Below, piece by piece: positions 1-48,600 of a DNA stretch of 64,000 bases. The notes beneath the pieces are model-generated. The model was not told where the DNA came from, ran no database searches, and worked only from the letters and a program-made list of their open reading frames with translations. Numbering within the stretch: the first letter of the stretch is position 1; every line of letters starts with the position of its first letter. Both the position numbers and the translations under genes were made by a program. The stretch comes from a virus, in IMG/VR virus record IMGVR_UViG_3300043410_001024, positions 1 through 64,000 of that record. One strand, 5' to 3'.

Positions 1-2
1 TT

Positions 3-59
3 GTGGGTATGGCGTTCGTAATGATCGCGGCAGTTTTACTGATTGATTTTATTAAATAA
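3..59 (+). CDS. 3' end of a gene entering from the left edge (hydrophobic C-terminus VGMAFVMIAAVLLIDFIK*)
   Basis: Open frame from the window edge to TAA 57-59, followed by a hairpin. Partial and short. Confidence 0.3.
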   Translation: MGMAFVMIAAVLLIDFIK

Positions 60-65
60 TACACT

Positions 66-111
66 GAAAACAGGCGCAAGCCGCGTCATTGCTGTGTTTG
101 TGCCTGTTTTC
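66..111 (+). terminator. Long imperfect hairpin after the edge ORF (possible terminator or processing stem)
   Basis: GAAAACAGGCGCAAGC (66-81) pairs with GTTTGTGCCTGTTTTC (96-111) using G-U pairs. Confidence 0.4.
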
Positions 112-179
112 GCCCCTGTTATCACGCTCCAGCGTTCGCCCCTGTTATCACGCTCCAGCGTTCGCCCCTGTTATCACGC
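109..179. repeat. 26-bp tandem repeat, 2.7 copies
   Basis: TTCGCCCCTGTTATCACGCTCCAGCG at 109-134 and 135-160, partial copy 161-179. Confidence 0.95.
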
Positions 180-325
180 CTAAGCGTTCAAAATTGCCCT
201 GTAAGCCCTGCAGGTGGTGCAATGGCATTGCTTTTTTGCTTTCGTGGCGTGGTGGTGGCTTAAAACGCAAATTCTAAATGCCAGCACGTTTTTAAAATTA
301 TTTTCATTTTTTTTCGTTTTGAGTA

Positions 326-398
326 TTGACACGGGCGAAAATGTCTGTAAAATACGCAGTCAGTGGGGGGCAATTTCGCCCCCCACATCAAACGGAGC
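326..398 (+). promoter_or_regulatory. Early promoter-stem-loop-RBS cassette 1
   Basis: TTGACA 326-331, 16 bp, TAAAAT 348-353; hairpin GTGGGGGGC-AATTTC-GCCCCCCAC 363-386; GGAG SD 394-397; A/T-rich UP-like tract upstream. Confidence 0.9.
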
Positions 399-405
399 AA
401 AAACA

Positions 406-663
406 ATGGCTAAATTATCAGATTCTTACACCACGCTCGTGCCAGCGAATATCGCTGGAATACCTTGCTTATTGGGCATTGACGATTTTTATCGTCAACC
501 CGCTGATTTTGGAGCGTGTAACCGTGATGATTTTTTTGGATACGTGGAACTTGAATTCACTGTAATGGATCGAAAAGGCTATAAAGCTGATTGGCTAGTT
601 AAAAAAATCACGCCAGTAATTGATCGTGAATTAGAAAAAACAGTTTTAGAATATTTCGCCTAA
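406..663 (+). CDS. Early hypothetical protein, 85 aa (MAKLSDSY...)
   Basis: ATG 406 follows the cassette SD. The ORF-track start at 214 runs through the promoter and is not credible. Confidence 0.8.
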   Translation: MAKLSDSYTTLVPANIAGIPCLLGIDDFYRQPADFGACNRDDFFGYVELEFTVMDRKGYKADWLVKKITPVIDRELEKTVLEYFA

Positions 664-668
664 AAGAG

Positions 669-736
669 TTGACAAGGCAAAACAAGTCTGTATAATAGGC
701 AATCAGTGGGGGGCAATTTCGCCCCCCACATCAAAC
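669..736 (+). promoter_or_regulatory. Early promoter-stem-loop cassette 2
   Basis: TTGACA 669-674, 16 bp, TATAAT 691-696; identical hairpin 706-729. Confidence 0.9.
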
Positions 737-749
737 AGGGGCAAAGAAA

Positions 750-968
750 ATGAAAGCAAAAAAAGTGGTAGAAAAAGCAATCAAACTAGGTTTAATCCGT
801 TATAATGACGGTGAGTCATTTTCACCGTTTTATGGTGCGGCACGTCATGACGTGTGGTTTTCATGCGGTGCGGGCGTGAATAAAACCATTGACGCTAATG
901 ACGTTGAACAATATACAGGGCTAAAAATCGTGTCAATCAATGGCGATAGCATCGAAAAATTAGTTTAA
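750..968 (+). CDS. Early hypothetical protein, 72 aa
   Basis: ORF exactly fills the space between cassettes 2 and 3. Confidence 0.75.
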   Translation: MKAKKVVEKAIKLGLIRYNDGESFSPFYGAARHDVWFSCGAGVNKTIDANDVEQYTGLKIVSINGDSIEKLV

Positions 969-974
969 AAACGG

Positions 975-1048
975 TTGACAAGGCAAAACAAGTCTGTATA
1001 ATACTCAATCAGTGGGGGGCAATTTCGCCCCCCACATCAAACGGAGCA
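975..1048 (+). promoter_or_regulatory. Early promoter-stem-loop-RBS cassette 3
   Basis: TTGACA 975-980, 16 bp, TATAAT 997-1002; hairpin 1012-1035; GGAG SD. Confidence 0.9.
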
Positions 1049-1052
1049 TAAA

Positions 1053-1358
1053 ATGAAAGCAAAAAGATTTTTTAATGGCAGTGACAGCTACGGGCGAAAT
1101 GTTCAAGTGGCGCAAGGCGTTGACGGTTCATGGTTTTATCGTATGTATGTATTCAACGGGTACGCCCGTGCATGGTCAAAATGGGATCAATTAGATACCG
1201 ATAAACATATATCATGGGCGCATGAATCAACCAACGTCTACAGCGGTGAAGTTACACCGCTAGAAAACCCCGTGTTAATGTGGGGGTTTAATTCATTACA
1301 TGAATACGCGGATGTTCCGCGCGTAAGATTGCCAGAAAAAAAAGAGTTGACAGTATAA
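1053..1358 (+). CDS. Early hypothetical protein, 101 aa, Trp/aromatic-rich
   Basis: SD-led ATG behind cassette 3; its last codons overlap the -35 of cassette 4. Confidence 0.8.
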   Translation: MKAKRFFNGSDSYGRNVQVAQGVDGSWFYRMYVFNGYARAWSKWDQLDTDKHISWAHESTNVYSGEVTPLENPVLMWGFNSLHEYADVPRVRLPEKKELTV

Positions 1359-1420
1359 AATAATCCTGTAAAATACGCAGTCAGTGGGGGGCAATTTCGC
1401 CCCCCACATCAAACGGAGCA
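1347..1420 (+). promoter_or_regulatory. Early promoter-stem-loop-RBS cassette 4
   Basis: TTGACA 1347-1352, 16 bp, TAAAAT 1369-1374; hairpin 1384-1407; GGAG SD. Confidence 0.9.
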
Positions 1421-1425
1421 TAAAA

Positions 1426-1953
1426 ATGAACAAACCAGATTTTTTAAACGTAATGGCATCAACAAAAGGCGCGGCTATCGCGTCAATGGTAACTGATACA
1501 GCGGTAGGTGGAGTTGCCGCTAAATATAAAGCAATGGCAATCCGTAAAGTAACTACAGCATCAATTATGCTTTTCAACGGGTTGAAGGATGCTGATCCGT
1601 ACCTAAACAAAATCGCTAAAACCAGTGACAGCGATAATGCTACCGATTTTGAAAAAAGCGAAACCTTCTTTGAGCATTCACATGAATGTTATAGTTTAGT
1701 AAGCCATAAAAAAACAGGCAAGTTATATTTGTACGCGCTTTATAATAGCGCAAAATCAACGTATTACATCGACGGCAAAGAAGTTACCCGTGATGAAGTA
1801 GCCATTTTCTTGACACCTTCAGCGGCTAAAACCTTAATGGATGATAGCGGCAGGGTATATAATCTTAAAAATGACGTTTATCATTCAGCTATCATTAGAA
1901 CGATTAGCCTTGAAAATGTCGTTAAATTGACCGCCAACGGTCAAACGATATAG
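1426..1953 (+). CDS. Early hypothetical protein, 175 aa (MNKPDFLNV...)
   Basis: ATG 1426 follows the cassette SD; the track start at 1384 is the hairpin's GTG. Confidence 0.8.
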   Translation: MNKPDFLNVMASTKGAAIASMVTDTAVGGVAAKYKAMAIRKVTTASIMLFNGLKDADPYLNKIAKTSDSDNATDFEKSETFFEHSHECYSLVSHKKTGKLYLYALYNSAKSTYYIDGKEVTRDEVAIFLTPSAAKTLMDDSGRVYNLKNDVYHSAIIRTISLENVVKLTANGQTI

Positions 1954-2017
1954 CGGCAATGGTAAGGGGGCGGGTAGACCGCCCTCGTGCTGTCACGGGC
2001 GTTTAAACGCGAATTTC

Positions 2018-2043
2018 AGCACGGGCGTTGCCCGTGCTTTTTT
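2018..2043 (+). terminator. Intrinsic terminator closing the early cassette array
   Basis: AGCACGGGC-GTT-GCCCGTGCT followed by a T run. Confidence 0.8.
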
Positions 2044-2078
2044 ATGCGTGGTGGTATGGTGTGGCACGGTAATTGACA

Positions 2079-2201
2079 ATGCAGGAATCGTGCCAACGGG
2101 GAGGCGTATCATATAAAAAAATATTTGTCAAATATTTTTTACGATGCAAAAATCGTGCCAACCGAAGGGGGGGTGGCGTATATATGCAAAAATCGTGCCA
2201 A
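2079..2201 (-). promoter_or_regulatory. Three tandem sigma54 (-24/-12) consensus sites
   Basis: Minus strand TTGGCACGATTCCTGCAT (2096-2079) and TTGGCACGATTTTTGCAT (2161-2144, 2201-2184), compared with the RpoN consensus YTGGCACG-N4-TTGCW. Confidence 0.65.
2116..2140. repeat. Perfect AT-rich inverted repeat
   Basis: AAAAAATATTTG-T-CAAATATTTTTT, between the first two sigma54-like sites. Confidence 0.9.
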
Positions 2202-2217
2202 CTTTTGTTGCGGCGGA

Positions 2218-2500
2218 CAAAAATTCTTTCAAAAAACTCCCTGATTTTTCCAAAAATTTCCACAAAAATTTCCACAAAAATTTCTCCAACTTTTCTCCCA
2301 ACTTTTCTCCAACTTTTCAAAAACTTTCCTAAAAACTTGCCTCAAAAAAGGTCGATATATAGAAAAACAGGTCGATCAAAGTGTAAGTACCTTCTTCTAA
2401 TTTTTTGCGCGGCTCAGGTTTTCACACTGTGTAGGAAAAGTGGGTCCAAAGTGTAAGTACCTTGTTGAAATTTTTGGGCGGGAAAAATTTTGCGCTCCGG
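2218..2500. repeat. Non-coding low-complexity region: periodic A/T tracts and direct repeats
   Basis: CAAAAATTTCCA and CCAACTTTTCT units with about 11-12 bp period and almost no G over 2220-2345; CAAAGTGTAAGTACCTT at 2377-2393 and 2447-2463. Confidence 0.85.
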
Positions 2501-2515
2501 TATAGAAAAAGTAGG

Positions 2516-2522
2516 CTAAATA
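2516..2522 (+). promoter_or_regulatory. Putative T4-type late promoter for the kinase cluster
   Basis: CTAAATA; the same (A/C)TAAATA motif precedes most structural genes in this window. Short and AT-rich, so it could be chance. Confidence 0.45.
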
Positions 2523-2603
2523 TGAAAGGGCACTAGAGAGAGTAAGGTACCATAATTGATGGTGTTTTACTCTAGTGAGTGTAGAGATATTAAAGGACTT
2601 TTG

Positions 2604-3302
2604 ATGAGAATAGAAGAATTAAGTGGATATCGTGATAATGAGTACATGCAGGGTGCAAAGGATATATTTAAGCAGCGTCCGGCTGATAATCCTGCAACTG
2701 GCGATGATGACATAATAGGCAAGTTAGATCCTAACAAGAGTAGTTTGGAATATGCGCCATATTATCAGATGATGCAATTTAACAAGTTTTTGACTGCTAA
2801 GGGATTTCGGCAATTGGGTTCTGGGGCGTATGCTGGTGTGTGGGAGCATCCTAATCATCCGTGGGTATTTAAGGTATTCAAGAATGATGAGGCGTATATG
2901 ACTTATTATAAGTGGTGTCGTTCTCACCAGAATAACCCTAATGTTCCTAAGATTAAGGGTGGTGTGATTAAGATAAATGATGAGACTTATGCCATACGGA
3001 TGGAAAAATTATCTCCGATAGACAAGGATGTATACAATGATGTTGATCGTGCGGTTGGAGCATTTGAGTGGTATGTACGTGGTATAAAGAAGGGATGGGA
3101 CGAGGAGACTATGGAACGTGTACGAGCTGAGTTAGAAGAATATCGTGAGGCGTATCCTGGTATATATGAGATAATGGCGATGATATTTAAGAGTGGATAT
3201 CGATTAGATTTGCATTTTAACAACATCATGCAGCGTGGTGATATTCCGGTAATCACTGATCCGATAGTAGGAAGTGGTTGGGGAACTAAGGTGGAAATAT
3301 GA
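2604..3302 (+). CDS. T7 gp0.7-like Ser/Thr protein kinase, paralog 1
   Basis: G-loop LGSGAYAGV, catalytic Lys in VFKVF, hinge MEKL, catalytic loop LDLHFNNIM, ITDP. ATG 2604 follows SD AAAGGA (MRIEELSGY). Confidence 0.85.
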   Translation: MRIEELSGYRDNEYMQGAKDIFKQRPADNPATGDDDIIGKLDPNKSSLEYAPYYQMMQFNKFLTAKGFRQLGSGAYAGVWEHPNHPWVFKVFKNDEAYMTYYKWCRSHQNNPNVPKIKGGVIKINDETYAIRMEKLSPIDKDVYNDVDRAVGAFEWYVRGIKKGWDEETMERVRAELEEYREAYPGIYEIMAMIFKSGYRLDLHFNNIMQRGDIPVITDPIVGSGWGTKVEI

Positions 3303-3907
3303 AACTACGGGAATTGACTGGGTATCATAATACGCCTATCCAGGGGATTGTTGATAAGGCCAAGGATGAGTTTAGTGGTGGTAAGAAGACCAGATATGAT
3401 GCTGCGTTTAACAATTTCTATGAGTATATAAAGCAGCATGGATTTCATCGTGTTGGCACTGGTAACAATGCTGATGTATATGAGAAGGAAGGATATCCGT
3501 GGTTGTTTAAGGTGTTTAGTGGTGATCCTGCGTATATGTCGTATTACAAGTATTGTAGGGTTAACCAGGGTAATCCGCATGTTCCGCGTATTAAGGGTGG
3601 GTTGCGTAAGATATCTGGGAATACGTATTGTGTACAGATAGAGAAGTTAAATCCGTTGCCTGGAAGTGGTATGAAGTTTGTTGAGACGTTACAGAATGCT
3701 GCGTTAGGCTTGGTGGATGATGATCCGTTTGATGATGAGATGGCGGATGAATATCGGCGTAGTATTTCTCAGATTAGTACAAAGTTTCCTGAGTTGATGA
3801 AGTTACTGCGGGATTTGGTTGCGTTTAGGAATTACACATTTGATTTAGATGAGAGTAATGTGATGATGCGTGGTGTGATGCCTGTAATAACAGATCCATT
3901 TGCGTGA
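3299..3907 (+). CDS. T7 gp0.7-like Ser/Thr protein kinase, paralog 2
   Basis: VGTGNNADV, LFKVF, IEKL, FDLDESNVM, ITDP; ATGA overlap with paralog 1. Confidence 0.85.
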   Translation: MKLRELTGYHNTPIQGIVDKAKDEFSGGKKTRYDAAFNNFYEYIKQHGFHRVGTGNNADVYEKEGYPWLFKVFSGDPAYMSYYKYCRVNQGNPHVPRIKGGLRKISGNTYCVQIEKLNPLPGSGMKFVETLQNAALGLVDDDPFDDEMADEYRRSISQISTKFPELMKLLRDLVAFRNYTFDLDESNVMMRGVMPVITDPFA

Positions 3908-3917
3908 GGGGAAATAG

Positions 3918-4526
3918 ATGAAATTAAAAGAGTTAACTGGATACAAGGGTAATGCGCATTATCAGGCGGCTAAGAATACATTGGTTAGAGATAATCCGGA
4001 GGATGAGAATCGCAAGCAGTTTAACAAGTTTAAGGAGTATATGGTTGCGAATGGATTCGAGTATATGGGGACTGGTGCGTATGGGACTGTATATGAGAAG
4101 CCTGGGTATCCGTGGTTATTTAAGTTATTTAAGGAAGATCCTGCGTATATAGAGTTTATCCAGTATAGTAAGGCGCATGCTGACAATCCTCATTTACCGA
4201 AGTTTAAGGGTGGTATAATAAGAATCAATGCTGATACTTATTGTATCCGGACTGAGAAATTAGTTGATTTACCGTATGAGAATTATAGAAAGTATATGGA
4301 TTATTTTACTGCGGTGTTTGCGGTACTACAAAACCGGGTTGACAAGAATGATTCGATGTATGATGAGTTGTATCGTGAGTATCAGCAGTTTAGTCGTAAG
4401 CATCCGAACATATATGAGATATTGAAATACATATTTACGGAAAGTTCGTACCATCCTGATTTGCACAATGGGAATTTAATGATGCGAGGGAGTACGTTAG
4501 TGTTTAGTGATCCGGTAGCGATATAG
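3918..4526 (+). CDS. T7 gp0.7-like Ser/Thr protein kinase, paralog 3
   Basis: MGTGAYGTV, LFKLF, TEKL, PDLHNGNLM, FSDP; SD GAGGGG. Confidence 0.85.
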   Translation: MKLKELTGYKGNAHYQAAKNTLVRDNPEDENRKQFNKFKEYMVANGFEYMGTGAYGTVYEKPGYPWLFKLFKEDPAYIEFIQYSKAHADNPHLPKFKGGIIRINADTYCIRTEKLVDLPYENYRKYMDYFTAVFAVLQNRVDKNDSMYDELYREYQQFSRKHPNIYEILKYIFTESSYHPDLHNGNLMMRGSTLVFSDPVAI

Positions 4527-4547
4527 CCCTCTTACGAGGGCTTTTTT
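4525..4547 (+). terminator. Intrinsic terminator after the kinase cluster
   Basis: AGCCCTC-TTAC-GAGGGCT followed by TTTTT, at the convergent junction. Confidence 0.8.
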
Positions 4548-5629
4548 ACGGGTTGTTGAAGTGCTGCTTGTCTAGCTTGCATATCGTTTGCTTGTGCGTC
4601 TGGGTTTCGGCTAATAGTAGGACCGATAGCTTTCCAGCCACGTTTTTGCATTAGTTGAGCTTGTTGTCTACCGTTTCTGAAACTTGGGTGATTCAAATCT
4701 TCTTCTGCGGACAGTGGGTCATTCGGGTGACCTAATTGGTATTTTAGGCCAGCGTTATGACCTGGGCAGTTTGGGTCGGTTGCATCAACACATGGATGGA
4801 AATCGTTTGGTCCTTTGGGTGGTTTTGGTCCATACCTAAAAAAACTTCCGTTTCCCATAGCTTCAACAATATCTTTATCGATTGATTCATAGATCTCATA
4901 CATGAAGTCATCTTCATCCCCATAGGTTACATTCTTTGCCATAACTAGGCCACCGATTTGAATAACTAGGTCAGCTTTGATAACTGGTTCTTGTGTTTTT
5001 CTATCGTAGAAATAAGAATGTCGTTCTGGGTCCATACCAACTTGAGTCCACTCTGGGTTGGATAATGCGTCTTGTGCGATTAATCTAGCTTGTTCTACGG
5101 TTGATGGGATGTATAAACCATTCATAGTAGCAAGTGGATTTTTATCTACTTTTTTACCTTTATCTGAGCGTCCCCTAGCGATATTCAGTGCACCTTTTTC
5201 TGGTACTTCAAACGTAACATTTTTAATAATAGCGGTGGATGCGTGTGCGATTGGATCACCAGATGCATTATGAATAGTTGGAATCCACACTCCCTTAGAT
5301 TTATAAGCTGGGATATCTAGTCTAAGTTTAACGGGTGTACCAGCTGGGATTTGTGTATTAAGTTTATCACGTTGGTTAACTTTCAGCGTGTTATACATGG
5401 TATCATCATCGGCGGATGGTGGTAGTTCATCATACGCCGACACTGGTTTATATTTGTTAACTAGACGACGATATTCGGTTTTATCAATTTCACCGTGCCG
5501 TAGTTTTTCGGCAGCCGCTGTTAATTGTGGAATACGGTCAGTAACGTTTTTGAAGTGTAGGTTACGTCTATCAGGTGCGACATAATCATCTTCTTCGGTA
5601 TTTTCGGTTAGAATGTCAAATATTTTCAT
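4532..5629 (-). CDS. Hypothetical protein, possible internal head (injected) protein
   Basis: 365-aa ORF; N-terminus MKIFDILTE resembles a capsid-targeting leader; globular core RLDIPAY...QVGMDPERHSYFYDR. Confidence 0.7.
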   Translation of the reverse strand: MKIFDILTENTEEDDYVAPDRRNLHFKNVTDRIPQLTAAAEKLRHGEIDKTEYRRLVNKYKPVSAYDELPPSADDDTMYNTLKVNQRDKLNTQIPAGTPVKLRLDIPAYKSKGVWIPTIHNASGDPIAHASTAIIKNVTFEVPEKGALNIARGRSDKGKKVDKNPLATMNGLYIPSTVEQARLIAQDALSNPEWTQVGMDPERHSYFYDRKTQEPVIKADLVIQIGGLVMAKNVTYGDEDDFMYEIYESIDKDIVEAMGNGSFFRYGPKPPKGPNDFHPCVDATDPNCPGHNAGLKYQLGHPNDPLSAEEDLNHPSFRNGRQQAQLMQKRGWKAIGPTISRNPDAQANDMQARQAALQQPVKKPS

Positions 5630-5637
5630 AATATTAT

Positions 5638-7008
5638 TTATATATTGTTCAACAGGTTTCTTAGTTTTGAGCTTTGGACTTCTGCGGTAACTTTTGGTTC
5701 TTCGATAGTGGATCTTTGTCTAATTGAGTTAAGAATAGCTGATCCTGCTGATTGCATAGGTTGGTTACCGAATTCATCATCAACGTCTGCGTCGGTGATT
5801 CTAAGTGAATCGATACAGAAAGATAAATCGATTTTTTGCCCTGTACCAGAACTATTACGAGTTTTCATAAGTTGAATTTGGTATTGTCCGCGTTCGCGCA
5901 TAGCTCTTGAGGTAAAGATACCGAATACGTTATCAGCTGTCATAATTTTAGAAAGACCGCCAGAGATATGGCTATGGTCGAATTCAACTTCTTCTACTGC
6001 GCCACGGTTTAGCTGAGATGCGGTGACTAATAAGCAATTCTTTTCTACTGCTAGGTTTCTAAGTTCTTCCGAGACGTACTTATCTTTGATGAAAAGGTCA
6101 GCTGGGCTGATTTTCTTCGAGAGTGGCATTAGCAAATCTAGGTAATCTACTAACAGTACATCAATTTTTCTATTAGTTTTTATTTCATATTCTTTTAAAT
6201 ATGATCTTACGTCATTGGCATTTTTGCCGGATGGCATATATTTGACTTGCAGTGACCCAGCTTTTTTACCGATGGTTTTAACTTTAAGTTCTACGTTATC
6301 GATTTGTTTAAAGATATCTCTGGATGGTATACCGGTAATCATGGAATCGATACGCATTGAGACTAGTTCTTCTGAGAGTTCTAGTGTAAGGTAAAGAACA
6401 TTAAGACCGGCTAGTGCCCAGTTAACGCCAAGATTTGCTAGGAATAGTGATTTACCTGCGCCAGAACCACCGGCAAAGATATTAAGTTCACCGCGATTCA
6501 TACCGCCGAAAAGTTTATCATCGACGTTTTTCCAGCCGGTTGATACTTGGCCATTTTTATCTTTGATTTTTGAAAGACGTTTTTTAGGGTCTTCGAAGTA
6601 ATCGGTACCCATATCTTTTTGTAGACCGACTTGGACTGCGCGTTTAATTTTATCTTCGACTGTACCGTATTCACCTTTTTCTAATAAATCGGCTGATTCG
6701 ATGATTGCGCGTTCTAGTCCTTTATGTCGGGTGAATGTTTCAAATTCGTTTAACAACCAATCAAAATTTTCTGCGCGTAAGTTAGCAGGTGGTGCAAAAT
6801 TAGCTTTGGTGGTTGCGTTTACGATTTCGAAGGTTGGGATTACATTATAGACATCAACATATTCTTTAATGAATTCTGCTGGTAATTGTAACTTTTTATC
6901 GAATAAAGTGTGGTCAAAAATTGATTGACATCTAACAAATGATTCTGGGTCCACTAGCATCATTTCTAGGTATAATTTTTGTACATCGAATCCATAATTT
7001 ACATTCAT
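5638..7008 (-). CDS. 41: DnaB-like replicative helicase (T4 gp41-like)
   Basis: Walker A AGGSGAGKS, LTLELSE, Walker B LLVDYLDL, TASQLNR, KTRN. Confidence 0.95.
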   Translation of the reverse strand: MNVNYGFDVQKLYLEMMLVDPESFVRCQSIFDHTLFDKKLQLPAEFIKEYVDVYNVIPTFEIVNATTKANFAPPANLRAENFDWLLNEFETFTRHKGLERAIIESADLLEKGEYGTVEDKIKRAVQVGLQKDMGTDYFEDPKKRLSKIKDKNGQVSTGWKNVDDKLFGGMNRGELNIFAGGSGAGKSLFLANLGVNWALAGLNVLYLTLELSEELVSMRIDSMITGIPSRDIFKQIDNVELKVKTIGKKAGSLQVKYMPSGKNANDVRSYLKEYEIKTNRKIDVLLVDYLDLLMPLSKKISPADLFIKDKYVSEELRNLAVEKNCLLVTASQLNRGAVEEVEFDHSHISGGLSKIMTADNVFGIFTSRAMRERGQYQIQLMKTRNSSGTGQKIDLSFCIDSLRITDADVDDEFGNQPMQSAGSAILNSIRQRSTIEEPKVTAEVQSSKLRNLLNNI

Positions 7009-7034: not shown

Positions 7035-8480
7035 TTAATTAAAAACTTTTACATTATAAGTATTTTCAAATACTTTAGAATCTCCTATGGTATTAACCAT
7101 TGGATGACCCTTAATATTCAGACTAGTATTGAGAAGCATTGGGCATCCGGTTTTAGAATACCACTCTTCCAATAGAGTTCTTACTTGTGGGTCGGCATTT
7201 TTTCCAACAGTTTGCACACGGCTGGTTCCATCAGCATGTACTATTCCTGGGAATTTATCTGGATATTTGCAAGTGGCGGTATATTGCATATATCGATTAT
7301 CGGTACTGATAAGGTCGAAATGTTCTGACGCGTGTTCCTCCAACACCATTGGTGCAAATGGACGAAATGCTTGTCTATCTTTAATTGTATTAACCCTATC
7401 TTTGATATTTGGTACACGCGGGTCAGCGATTAAGCTTCTGTTACCTAATGCGCGGGGTCCAAATTCTGCTTTACCTCTTGCTATACCACAAACTTGATTA
7501 GCGATAAGATATTCCACTATTTCTGCATTAGTGGAATGATACCCGATATCATATCCAATATATGGGTTAAACCGTATTCTATTTTTGGTATGTGCTAGCA
7601 CTGTTCCGATTGCGCTTCCTGCATCACCAGGATTTGGCATAATCCAAACATTATTAAAATATTTGTAAGCCAGTGGGTTGGCACTACAATTCAATGCGCA
7701 TCCACCCATGAATACTAAATTATCACTTGGAACTAGTTTTTTTGCCAGCTCTAGTGCATCTTTGAACATTCTATTATACACTAATTGTGTTCCAGATGCA
7801 ATATCAAAATAATCAGATACAGTTAAGTCTGGTGCCCAATCTAAGCAGCCACGGTGTAAATTCCGTCTAAACTTAAAATTATCAGCAACAAAATCGTCAT
7901 AGATGCGCTGTTCAAGTTTATTACCACCGTATGCTGCCATCCCCATTAAGATATATTCATCTTCGTTTGGTTTCAACCCAACTCGTTGAGTCATTGCGCT
8001 ATAAAACAGACCAATGCTATTGGGATAATTTTGAGACCATATTTTTTTTAATTTGTTTCCAGTACCATGCCAGATTGTCATGGTTTCAAATTCACCAATT
8101 GCGTCTATCACTAATATACAAGCATCAGCAAAGCTACTGGTATAATAGCCTGCAGCGGCGTGGCTATGATGATGTGCGGTATATGTAATTGGTACATTTA
8201 GATGATAAGTGGATAGATATTTTTTGATATTATTATCATCAAATTTTAATCCTTGCCCAGCTACTAGTTGTCTAATTGATTTAAGTAATGGGCGTTCATA
8301 CCAGTATATTTTTGATGGGTTTCCAAACTTAGATGCATAATTTATTAATTCATCACAAAGATTGGCATCATTTTTAATGCCGCTAAATCTTTCACTATGA
8401 CTAGCAAAAATCAAATTGTTGTTATCAAATACAGCAAGTGCGGCATCATGGCTATTTGCACTAATTCCCCATGTTATCAT
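7035..8480 (-). CDS. Carbamoyltransferase (NodU/CmcH/TobZ family)
   Basis: HDAALA, ERFS, HHHSHAA, DAIGE, EYILMGMAAYG, GGCALN, GDAGSAIG, EFGPRALGNRS, FRPFAP, HADGTSRVQTV, LLNTSLN. Confidence 0.95.
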   Translation of the reverse strand: MITWGISANSHDAALAVFDNNNLIFASHSERFSGIKNDANLCDELINYASKFGNPSKIYWYERPLLKSIRQLVAGQGLKFDDNNIKKYLSTYHLNVPITYTAHHHSHAAAGYYTSSFADACILVIDAIGEFETMTIWHGTGNKLKKIWSQNYPNSIGLFYSAMTQRVGLKPNEDEYILMGMAAYGGNKLEQRIYDDFVADNFKFRRNLHRGCLDWAPDLTVSDYFDIASGTQLVYNRMFKDALELAKKLVPSDNLVFMGGCALNCSANPLAYKYFNNVWIMPNPGDAGSAIGTVLAHTKNRIRFNPYIGYDIGYHSTNAEIVEYLIANQVCGIARGKAEFGPRALGNRSLIADPRVPNIKDRVNTIKDRQAFRPFAPMVLEEHASEHFDLISTDNRYMQYTATCKYPDKFPGIVHADGTSRVQTVGKNADPQVRTLLEEWYSKTGCPMLLNTSLNIKGHPMVNTIGDSKVFENTYNVKVFN

Positions 8481-45677: not shown

Positions 45678-48600
45678 TTATTGACTCTCCTTGATAGTTA
45701 ATAACACTGCAATAACATTTGGGGTATCACATGATGCTTTAATACTATAACCATTTGGAACTTGATAAACAGTTTCACTACGGAATAACCCAGTTGTGGT
45801 ATCGCTTGGACTAAGTGTCTGACCATTGTTTAAATAAAATACGTTACCAGCATTATCATCTAATGTTAAATAGAATTTGACATCGTCTGGTAATCCGTAT
45901 GCGGTGTAAGTATTATTAAGTGATGCGGTTGAGTTATATAACTGCCATGAATTTTTACCAGTTCTGTATAATACAATCCATCCACTACCAATTGTCGCAA
46001 CTTGGGTTGATTGATAAGTGGTCGAATCAACGGTGTTAAAATTATAGTTAAATGCTTGTTGGTCAATTTGTGCTGTGTTTTGTAAAGTAACAGCATATCC
46101 CATTTTACTGGCAACGATTTGTGCCCATCTATGGCTAGTATATAACGATACGGTCATCAAACTACCCGTTGCTGATGATAATGTTAATGCACTTCCACCG
46201 ACTGACGTACTTACTGAAAACGTGGTAGAGGTAAATCCAGATAATACATAGTACGTTGTACCAGCGCCTATACCACCGTATGCAGTACCATTAAATCTAA
46301 CCGCCATATTAGTATACATACCAGTTGTACTTGCAACGGTGATTAAATTTCCAGTAGAATTAGTTGATAAAACTGATTGTGGCGCCCATTGGGTGTAATA
46401 TCCTTGCCAATCATTTAAACGACCATTAATTGACGCATATATTCTTGGGGTTCCGAGATATTCATCATACATCATTGCAACTTGCGTACCAGATTTAGAA
46501 CCACAATGAACATGCATTGGTGTACCCCATCCTTGAGTAACTTGGCTTTCACCACCGGTTTTTCCATTTAATGGGTAGGCCGTTGTGGTAAAACTACTTA
46601 AGTTGGTGGCAACCGCATATGCAGCACTCATACCATGCAGTGCATAGTTAGCGGCACTACTAGGGAAGTATGATCCAATTATTCTCCATAGCCCTCTTGA
46701 GAAAGTTAACGAGCACGGGGTATCTTGAATCAATTTGAAATTTGGCCGATAACCGATAGTCCAGGTACCGTCACCGAAATTCATACCAGTGTTACCCAAA
46801 TCACTCCATGTAGAACCATTAAACAACCCCATACGCATAAAGGTTCCACTGCTACCCATGTACAACAAATACGCCATTTCTGTGGTGGCTGTTGCACTCG
46901 TTTGTTCACTAAAGTATACCATGTTACATAGTGCACCGCCACTCATACCTACTAAATTTTGTTGTGATTTTAAAGTTGGTAATTGGGTATAAGATGTCAT
47001 TGCTTCAGTAACTAACGCGAGACAGTTGTTACCAAATGTGCCATTAGTGTTATGTGGCCCGTAGCTTGTATGTGGATACACTCTATTCCCATATTCAATA
47101 CCGATTAGTAATCTACCGGTTGGTGTTACTTGGATTTGGGTTGCGGCATAAATGTAATTTAATGATGCATTCATTGAGCTGAGAAGTACTTCACTCAATA
47201 CAACACCAGATGTATTCATTGCGTAAATTCTACCACCTTGGCATACCATCCAGCATCCTGCCGGTTCATTCCACGCATATCCCTCACCGTAGTCATATCC
47301 CCATGGCAAGTAGTTACCAGTGTGGGCGGTTTGGCCAACGCTTGTGGTACTACCAGTCGAATTAATACGTGCTTTGTAATTGCCAGATGCGTTTGCATTA
47401 ATAGTTGCAGGATCATAATATATGTATAATGGGCGACTATTAAATGGATACCATTTAGTCGAATAGCGAACAGTGTTAACACTTTCACTTAATCCATTGA
47501 TTAAATTAGTTGCCACACCTGCACTATCATAACATACTAAACACCCGTATTCACCAACAAATACAACTCTTTCATCACCCCATTGGTAATGTTCAGATAT
47601 ACTCTTCATAGTAGTGTGTTGTGTCGTAAGCTGGGTTCTGGTGTTAGATAATGTCGTTGAGCTGGTTTGACGATAGAAAGTCACTAATCCGTCAGACGCG
47701 CCAGTTCCAGTGGTGGCTGCAATAACTGCGTTAACGTTGGTTCCTGTCGATAAACACGCACATTCTAATCCAGAGTGGGCGGAACTGACAGCGGTTAATG
47801 ATACAGCGGTGGCTGCACTGGTCCATGCGTTAGTACTTGAGTTAAAGTTGAATGCAATTGCTTGGCTAGCGGTGGCAGAGGTTGTTACTGCAAACAAGTA
47901 AGGGGTAACGTTTGCTGTTGCAGTTTTTACCATTTTACACATACCAATATTGTATGTTGATTGTGCAATACCAAGACTTTGTATAGAACCTGCAGTAGAA
48001 ATTGCGCCAGTGTTTGCCATGTTAAATGCCTGCGCACTCCAGTTACCAACCGCCGTACCTGATGCAACAATTACTTTATCAGTATTGTCTGGGACGATTT
48101 CAAGTGCAAATGGATATGCATTGGCGTTCCCAAATGCGGTTGACATATCTAAACTGGTAACAAGGTGGTCAACAGTGTTACCCGTAATAGTAAATCTCAT
48201 TAAATATTTAGTAGTACGTTGTTGGCAAACAACTGCCACTTTAGTTGCGGTAAGTGCAATTGCTCTCCAGCAAGGTTGTTGCCAGGAGGTTGAACTACCG
48301 TTAGGTGCAGACCATAAGTTATAGCTAAAATCACTAAACCAAGCAACTGGTAACGTGTGGTTTTGGATTGGTCCAGCCACGTATTTGTTAGTTTGATATT
48401 CAACAATTTGTGTGTGGATCATATTTCCACCAAAGAAATCTAAACTTCCACAACGGTGATGTGAATGAGGAAGGAAAAATAACAATACACGATTTGCACT
48501 TAATTGTACTTGATACGGTTCACCCCATCCGTATGTGCTTGCGCCACTATAACTAATAATAGGATTAACATTTGAACCAAATGGTGTCCATTCTTGTGCA

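Follow-up and report, generated by a model that had tools for sequence, protein, structure and literature searches.

Why should a virus carry three tandem boxes of sigma54 promoter type that point at the 3' end of its early genes, with no gene of their own downstream? The question arises in a gene-free gap of 650 bp near the left end of IMG/VR record IMGVR_UViG_3300043410_001024, a contig of 99,681 bp whose positions 1-64,000, at its left end, form the stretch of DNA that was analysed and is called the window here. As far as sequence can establish it, the boxes are high-quality sigma54-type sites under selection. The reading placed first is that they are docking sites for host sigma54 holoenzyme, that is, enhancer-dependent -24/-12 elements that fire leftward, and taken as a whole this reading has about an even chance of being right.

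The phage and its gene-free gap

The contig has a CheckV completeness of 27%, which at 99.7 kb makes the virus a jumbo phage. From its sequence it is classed as a T4-like jumbo phage with a distant relationship to Pseudomonas phage PA5oct. Among cultured phages, PA5oct has the nearest helicase (52% identity), and those of Agrobacterium phage Atu_ph07 and Xanthomonas phage XaC1 are also close. PA5oct, Atu_ph07 and XaC1 infect Proteobacteria, which as a rule are rpoN+, and a host with sigma54 is presumed for this phage. PA5oct has no synteny with the contig beyond the helicase, and thus offers no usable comparison of the sigma54 region. In addition, megablast of window positions 1-6000 against cultured phages gave no match, and the window's kinase gene, used as a query against viral contigs, found no relatives.

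The boxes sit between four early cassettes of PeSL (promoter-early stem-loop) type on the left, a layout of T4-type phages (PMC2839356, PMC4122927), and three genes for T7 gp0.7-like protein kinases on the right, which form the right border of the gap. The sigma70 promoters of the early cassettes are mosaic (TTGACA-N16-TATAAT or TAAAAT, at 326, 669, 975 and 1347), and an identical 24-nt 5' hairpin is present in four copies, one per cassette. The first early ORF (406-663) matches the Pfam family YuA_Gp49 (E 7.5e-13); phage YuA is itself reported to use a sigma54 promoter, and the presence of this match beside the boxes is probably a coincidence. Just 5' of the first cassette, close to the contig start, are three 26-bp tandem direct repeats TTCGCCCCTGTTATCACGCTCCAGCG (109-186), two of them identical and the third 88% identical.

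On the other side, G exceeds C very strongly in the kinase paralogues (skew 0.3-0.45), which sets them apart from the remainder of the window. Beyond them lie replication genes on the minus strand, the helicase and a carbamoyltransferase among them; the helicase, primase and other replication genes begin 3 kb from the sigma54 region. The carbamoyltransferase gene, of the NodU/CmcH type (7035-8480; phrog_1601, E 1e-94), is found between the primase and helicase genes, and may have a role in DNA base modification. The features that concern the argument are, from left to right:

326-1953, plus strand: four one-gene early cassettes, PeSL-like, each made up of a small ORF with its RBS, a sigma70 promoter and an invariant 5' hairpin
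2018-2046, plus strand: intrinsic terminator closing the early array, with a 9-bp stem (7 GC pairs) and a T-run on the plus strand
2062-2077, plus strand: reversed sigma54-like box TGGCACGGTAATTGAC; GG is kept and GA replaces GC at -12 (TTGA)
2079-2096, minus strand: sigma54 site 1 TTGGCACGATTCCTGCAT; 1 mismatch in the 16-nt core, predicted +1 at ~2069
2106-2145: A+T stretch of 40 bp, at least 85% A+T, containing the perfect palindrome; candidate DNA-unwinding element or operator
2116-2140: perfect 25-bp palindrome, with arms at 2116-2127 and 2129-2140
2144-2161, minus strand: sigma54 site 2 TTGGCACGATTTTTGCAT; 0 mismatches, predicted +1 at ~2134, the edge of the A+T stretch
2162-2177: G-run on the plus strand, a C7 run on the motif strand, beginning at the predicted +1 of site 3
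2184-2201, minus strand: sigma54 site 3 TTGGCACGATTTTTGCAT; 0 mismatches, predicted +1 at ~2174 (A, then C7)
2244-2335: A-tracts repeated in tandem about every 12 nt, a probable case of intrinsically bent DNA
2350-2356 and 2370-2376: two GGTCGAT direct repeats, 20 nt apart, kept in relatives with and without boxes
2377-2393 and 2447-2463: two 17-bp direct repeats CAAAGTGTAAGTACCTT, kept in relatives with and without boxes
2604-4526, plus strand: three tandem T7 gp0.7-like protein kinase genes (phrog_15752; E 1.4e-19, 3.3e-12 and 2.3e-11)

Sigma54-type boxes in the window, its relatives and other viruses

An earlier, sequence-only reading of this DNA had reported three sigma54 consensus sites on the minus strand, a fourth, degenerate copy facing the other way, and a perfect 25-bp palindrome between sites 1 and 2, and its description proved accurate. 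The motif TTGGCACGATT(C/T)(C/T)TGCAT occurs at 2096-2079, 2161-2144 and 2201-2184, the reversed copy at 2062-2077, and the palindrome at 2116-2140. When scanned with the pattern TGGCACG-N4-TTGCW, allowing at most one mismatch, two sites match the consensus at 12 of 12 positions and the third at 11 of 12, the sole mismatch, in site 1, being the first T of TTGC. The GG-N10-GC arrangement is exact in all three, and variation between the copies is confined to a spacer position and to that same T, leaving GG and GC untouched. The reversed box, with its GA at -12, lacks GG-N10-GC, and forms a face-to-face pair with site 1 across a gap of 2 nt; its TTGACA was also considered as a sigma70 -35 element, and rejected because no -10 element lies at 16-18 nt.

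The same scan of the window and of the whole 99,681-bp contig, again with at most one mismatch, found one further site, a weak intragenic one at 46476, and no intergenic sigma54-type site elsewhere in the 99.7 kb. Dinucleotide shuffles (n=100) gave a mean of 0.55 hits per window and a maximum of 3, and none of the 100 reached the observed 4, ruling out a chance origin of the boxes. The spacing between boxes is 40 and 65 nt, and sites 1 and 2 resemble local duplications of a 'C-run + box' unit; a weaker copy of the G-run is present at 2097-2106. The boxes were also tried as PeSL cassettes, and rejected as such, having no sigma70 hexamers, no such stem-loop and no attached ORF.

As the sequence-only reading had it, the sites face the terminator (2018-2046) and the 3' end of the early cassettes (326-1953), and they have no credible leftward-reading gene downstream. 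The latter claim holds, since the only ATG ORF in the sense direction is one of 39 aa on the minus strand (2112-1993) without a Shine-Dalgarno sequence. An Rfam search of window positions 1-5000 gave no match. The downstream sense gene or defined RNA that would mark a sigma54 promoter was thus not found at this locus, and the next genes lie on the opposite strand.

A search with the helicase as query retrieved 80 related viral loci (66-80% identity), and alignment of the gap showed that five of the closest relatives cover the homologous region. The gap follows a shared plan that, in the relatives' orientation, starts with a GGTACTTA motif and a conserved block of ~25 nt, continues with tandem A-rich repeats of 11-12 nt, phage-specific in sequence, and a C-run, then with 55-60 nt of almost pure A+T containing TTGTCAAGAA, and ends with a second C-run, a hairpin and the converging early genes. 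Two relatives, L023 and L006 (the latter a clade member as judged by its non-coding region), have a single, perfect box, GTTGGCACGATTCTTGCAT and GTTGGCACGATTTTTGCAT respectively, in the same place and orientation as window site 3, directly preceding the C-run and the near-pure A+T. Helicase identity to the window is just 77-80% in relatives that have the orthologous site intact. The sequence-only reading had staked its proposal on the spacing within homologous repeats, and both GG-N10-GC and orientation are kept in L023 and L006.

In L021 and L042, the box is wholly absent, not degraded, and the surrounding repeats, C-run and AT-rich block are retained. Of the five closest relatives spanning the gap, then, two have no site, which implies that the box is dispensable for the region's conserved role. 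In its place is the element GCGAATAATTCTCATTTACA, which was examined as a sigma70, T4-middle or T4-late promoter, none of them convincing; it could be a promoter of another type. In L023 (15340-15500), a unit of 'element + C-run + TATCA + AT-rich TTGTCAAGAA' is present twice in tandem; GCGAATAATTCTCATTTACA opens the first copy and the sigma54 box opens the second, so that the two elements are positional alternatives. The tandem-repeat block keeps its place and its A-tract-rich period of 11-12 nt in all relatives with an entirely different repeat sequence (window 2244-2335; L021:9870-9995; L023:15170-15310; L006:1420-1495), which suggests selection for DNA shape (curvature) and not for a binding sequence. 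The larger clade members G003-G005 have no excess of sigma54 sites elsewhere in the genome.

The motif extends well beyond this clade. The exact 18-mer is present in 16 other viral contigs that, in the loci compared, share no proteins with this contig; it lies within 2 kb of the contig end in 10 of the 16 loci, and in two unrelated jumbo contigs it is positioned immediately 5' of a gene, in the sense direction. Arrays, defined as two perfect boxes 10-40 nt apart, were found at no fewer than 120 viral loci, whereas 596 Gb of bacterial and archaeal genome sequence gave 75 loci, many situated on short MAG contigs; these are raw counts, not scaled to the size of the viral collection. The excess of arrays in viral over bacterial DNA points to selection. 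Among the matches listed, 357 distinct perfect viral sites have Y before TGG in 83%, R after TGGCACG in 70% and W after TTGC in 87%. The positions that the search left unspecified in the viral boxes follow, in this way, the extended sigma54 consensus, reported as YTGGCACGrNNNTTGCW by Barrios and colleagues in 1999. In paired boxes, the spacers of the two halves differ and GG-N10-GC is kept in both, which argues for selection on the sigma54 positions and not for hairpin or palindrome pairing.

The architecture of the window's array also recurs. Among the viral matches listed, 51 of 68 (+,-) neighbour pairs have a face-to-face gap of 1-5 nt, a mode that includes the 2-nt gap of the window pair; clusters reach 12 sites, and many boxes are spaced 25-29 nt from start to start. 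The '+---' order of the window is found in other viral arrays. With a crude ORF caller, and again among the matches listed, 64 loci point at a same-strand gene, 36 at the 3' end of an opposite-strand gene, the type to which the window's array belongs, and 17 at nothing nearby, so that orientation relative to neighbouring genes is weakly biased. Such dense packing, with its 25-29 nt spacing and overlapping pairs, agrees neither with promoters that simply fire in series nor with a sponge of maximal capacity.

In the case of G002 (IMGVR_UViG_3300025121_000011; locus L018), a complete jumbo phage of 335 kb that is unrelated to the window, 25 sites with at most one mismatch are concentrated in one 22-kb region (258-280 kb), the reversed-pattern control giving 0-2. 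Their density is about one per 600-1000 bp; face-to-face pairs, separated by 3 nt, prevail, and apparently there is one per small-gene cassette. A different arrangement, in another phage type, is seen at L015 (650-2300), where 7-9 boxes lie in ~2.2 kb near the contig end, and likewise at L005, L008, L009, L011, L012 and L019; there, the boxes are mixed with at least 10 GTCAA-N6-TTGAC palindromes, five 12-nt tandem repeats and one sigma70 promoter.

The sigma54-type identity that the sequence-only reading had proposed is upheld by the perfect matches, by the excess over chance, by the conserved place and orientation of the site in two relatives, and by the pattern of conservation in phage arrays, including the extended consensus.

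Proposed leftward promoters and competing roles

Binding of sigma54 holoenzyme at these sites is likely, whereas the proposal that they work mainly by firing leftward transcripts is a tentative one that would sooner fail than succeed. On that proposal, host holoenzyme would bind the boxes as stable closed complexes once phage DNA enters the cell, and an AAA+ activator, probably the host's, would trigger leftward firing from ~2174, ~2134 and ~2069. A non-coding RNA would result, beginning with a C-run, passing through the AT-rich palindrome and reaching the last early cassette in antisense, with the likely effect that early-cassette expression is opposed or shut off, and possibly that the AT-rich element is opened. 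There are precedents for parts of this scheme: sigma54 holoenzyme is described as binding promoters in an inactive state, and orphan and antisense sigma54 sites as widespread in E. coli (PMC4591121), and a sigma54-like promoter in a phage is ascribed to YuA (PMC10914365).

The terminator at 2018-2046 is a poor one for leftward transcripts, and no minus-strand terminator was called leftward of the sites until 1644. However, the predicted RNA is C-rich and G-poor, and would hence be a good substrate for Rho, so that the antisense RNA might be short. It is also predicted to fold strongly (z -4.9); this was rejected as the sign of an RNA gene because the folding stems from the palindromes and the terminator, and is equal on either strand. 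Counted against the leftward-promoter reading are the lack of a downstream gene, of an Rfam match, of an activator gene and of an activator or IHF site, the retention of the repeats without boxes, and the two of five relatives that are box-less.

For the activator, searches of the 99.7-kb contig (~27% of the genome) with PF00158 and PF04552 gave no match. PF04552 (sigma54) likewise had no match in five array-bearing contigs, namely G002 and four others, or in five large clade members. With PF00158, one weak match was obtained in the five array-bearing contigs (14 bits, a 420-aa protein of G002), and weak matches in the large clade members were to a 758-aa protein of G003 (31.3 and 12.8 bits) and a 361-aa protein of G004 (19 bits). 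These are read as generic AAA+ proteins, since the family was also matched in 14 of 14 control genomes, archaea included. A GAFTGA-type motif is absent from all phage sequences examined, including the contig fragment (~27% of the genome). With no activator encoded in the sequence examined, the activator, if the sites fire, is probably the host's or non-canonical.

The sequence-only reading had also suggested that bent DNA and 17-bp direct repeats upstream of the boxes would fit an enhancer layout. Its observations stand, in that the A-tracts (2244-2335) and the 17-bp repeats exist, and these and the other repeats at 2350-2463 lie at activator-site distance from the boxes, which is about 80-200 bp for sigma54 promoters. 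The enhancer interpretation fared less well: the A-tracts and 17-bp repeats are kept in the box-less L021 and L042, and so are not tied to the boxes, consensus scans for IHF, DnaA, NtrC and NifA across 1950-2620 found nothing, and no activator gene was recognised. Of the roles that the sequence-only reading had offered (roadblock, decoy, injection pause, origin primer or antisense off-switch), sequence analysis singled out none. Leftward promoters nonetheless rank first, followed in order by a parking or sponge function, a transcription-activated origin, the site of another protein, and a neutral remnant.

The lack of an activator gene, both in the contig and in the complete 335-kb G002, and the lack of a gene 3' of the boxes are what a parking or decoy function would lead one to expect. 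Here, the boxes would never fire, and would instead hold host sigma54 holoenzyme in the closed, inactive complexes described for its promoters (PMC4591121). They could act as an insulator or roadblock at the early-gene boundary or, at high copy, as a sponge that draws sigma54 from host stress and defence regulons. Arrays of up to 12 boxes, many of them 25-29 nt apart among the matches listed, would be awkward for serial firing, and the weak bias in array orientation (64 same strand, 36 opposite, among the matches listed) also agrees with parking. The same packing cuts the other way, however: where pairs overlap face to face or boxes follow every 25 nt, polymerase could not fill every box simultaneously, which speaks against a simple maximisation of capacity. 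Three to four sites per genome make a small sponge, the boxes of other phages are mostly 5' of same-strand genes (among the matches listed), and two close relatives are without the site. Parking is judged unlikely, but less so than the readings that follow.

A transcription-activated replication origin, in which leftward sigma54 transcripts open or prime the element at 2106-2145, is improbable. At the primary origin of T7, two promoters in tandem (phi1.1A and phi1.1B) adjoin an AT-rich region; T4 oriF and oriG each pair a middle promoter with an unwinding element downstream of it, where an R-loop primer forms. In the window, a promoter-like box is found directly 5' of an AT-rich element, the predicted +1 of site 2 (~2134) abutting the 40-bp stretch of at least 85% A+T with its perfect palindrome, and the same order of box, C-run and 55-60 nt of near-pure A+T is seen in L023 and L006. 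Like many origins, the gap is moreover a conserved block that lacks genes and has phased A-tract repeats, and replication genes begin 3 kb away. Yet in L021 and L042 the AT-rich block is present and the sigma54 box is not, so that another promoter would be needed there, and none was identified. The scan of 1950-2620 found no DnaA box, and GC skew in the contig fragment gave no origin-type signal, the strong skew at 2400-4400 tracking the kinase genes. In addition, stable R-loops are favoured by G-rich RNA, and the leftward RNA would be C-rich.

More improbable still is that the boxes have nothing to do with sigma54, and are iterons or operators of a phage DNA-binding protein (an initiator, partition, packaging or repressor protein) that merely resemble -24/-12 elements. 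In favour of this, the copies are identical beyond the consensus, with a spacer of ATTY and an extra flanking G that L023 and L006 also have, site 1 and its partner form an inverted repeat (GGCACG-N20-CGTGCC), and other repeat families surround the boxes in the gene-free region. A lineage-specific protein, however, would not explain the same bipartite motif in unrelated phages that share no proteins in the loci compared, nor variable positions that follow the extended sigma54 consensus and paired halves that keep GG-N10-GC with different spacers. A bipartite half-site of 16 nt would also be unusual for a transcription-factor dimer, on general knowledge. Iterons in particular were rejected, because the spacing (40 and 65 nt) shows no regular helical phasing and the motif is also arrayed in unrelated phages.

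The least probable reading, a shade below the last, is that of a functionless remnant of a mobile regulatory cassette or local duplication, a set of neutral passengers in a fast-evolving repeat region, which would suit the presence or absence of the site between close relatives, the duplication-like sites 1 and 2 and the recombinational shuffling known for PeSL-type cassettes such as those adjoining (PMC2839356), but not consensus positions kept in three copies (0, 0 and 1 mismatches) despite diverged flanks, or an orthologous site intact at 77-80% helicase identity.

Sigma54 boxes and known regulatory systems

Sigma54 promoters are regarded as a bacterial device for tightly gated genes, and their presence as gene-less tandem boxes in the control region of a phage appears to be new. 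The only sigma54 promoter reported in phages that a literature search found is the single one of YuA, and no publication on phage arrays of tandem sigma54 boxes came up in it. The gene-less boxes of the window, together with at least 120 viral arrays and few bacterial ones by raw count, suggest that phages make use of the one form of host polymerase that, once bound to DNA, awaits an ATP-driven signal. Such use could give phages a novel means to time infection, to sense host stress, to prime replication or to disarm host responses.

A broader proposal, which is speculative and rather doubtful, is that tandem sigma54 boxes are a widespread, undescribed phage device for capturing host sigma54 polymerase, without a phage activator, on phage DNA as it enters the cell or replicates, and that they mark the early-to-late boundary in this phage. 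If so, the device might be a sponge that silences sigma54-dependent stress or defence programmes of the host, or it might take its timing from a host activator that senses stress; in this phage, it would act against the early cassettes or on an adjacent origin.

Compared with bacterial sigma54 promoters such as glnAp2 and pspA, the boxes have the same bipartite -24/-12 structure and an exact GG-N10-GC, and two of the three copies match fully. The bacterial promoters differ in having a downstream gene and a recognisable activator, whereas no downstream gene, recognisable activator or IHF site, or activator gene was found for the phage boxes. Furthermore, the phage boxes are three in tandem with an overlapping reversed copy, placed in a non-coding region and antisense to the neighbouring genes.

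In the case of Pseudomonas phage YuA, for which a sigma54-like promoter is reported (Ceyssens et al. 2008, as cited in PMC10914365), the likeness lies in a phage that depends on host RNA polymerase and has sigma54-type beside sigma70-type promoters. YuA, however, is a small siphovirus in which one sigma54-like promoter, driving genes, has been mapped, whereas the present phage is a T4-like jumbo phage with a tandem orphan cluster aimed at the 3' end of genes. The map of sigma54 sites in E. coli (Bonocora et al. 2015, PMC4591121) contains orphan consensus sites that bind holoenzyme and likewise have no obvious target, some of which are antisense. Those sites are single and scattered within chromosomal genes; the phage boxes, by contrast, are tandem and lie in a viral intergenic control region.

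The likeness to the origins of T7 and T4 is one of arrangement, with tandem promoters followed by an AT-rich palindromic stretch, near replication genes. Here, the promoters would be of the host sigma54 type and the origin is a candidate, and some relatives keep the AT block without the promoter. Finally, the boxes share with PeSL cassettes the character of regulatory repeats placed in a T4-like phage's plastic early region, and PeSL-like cassettes (326-1953) adjoin them directly on the left.
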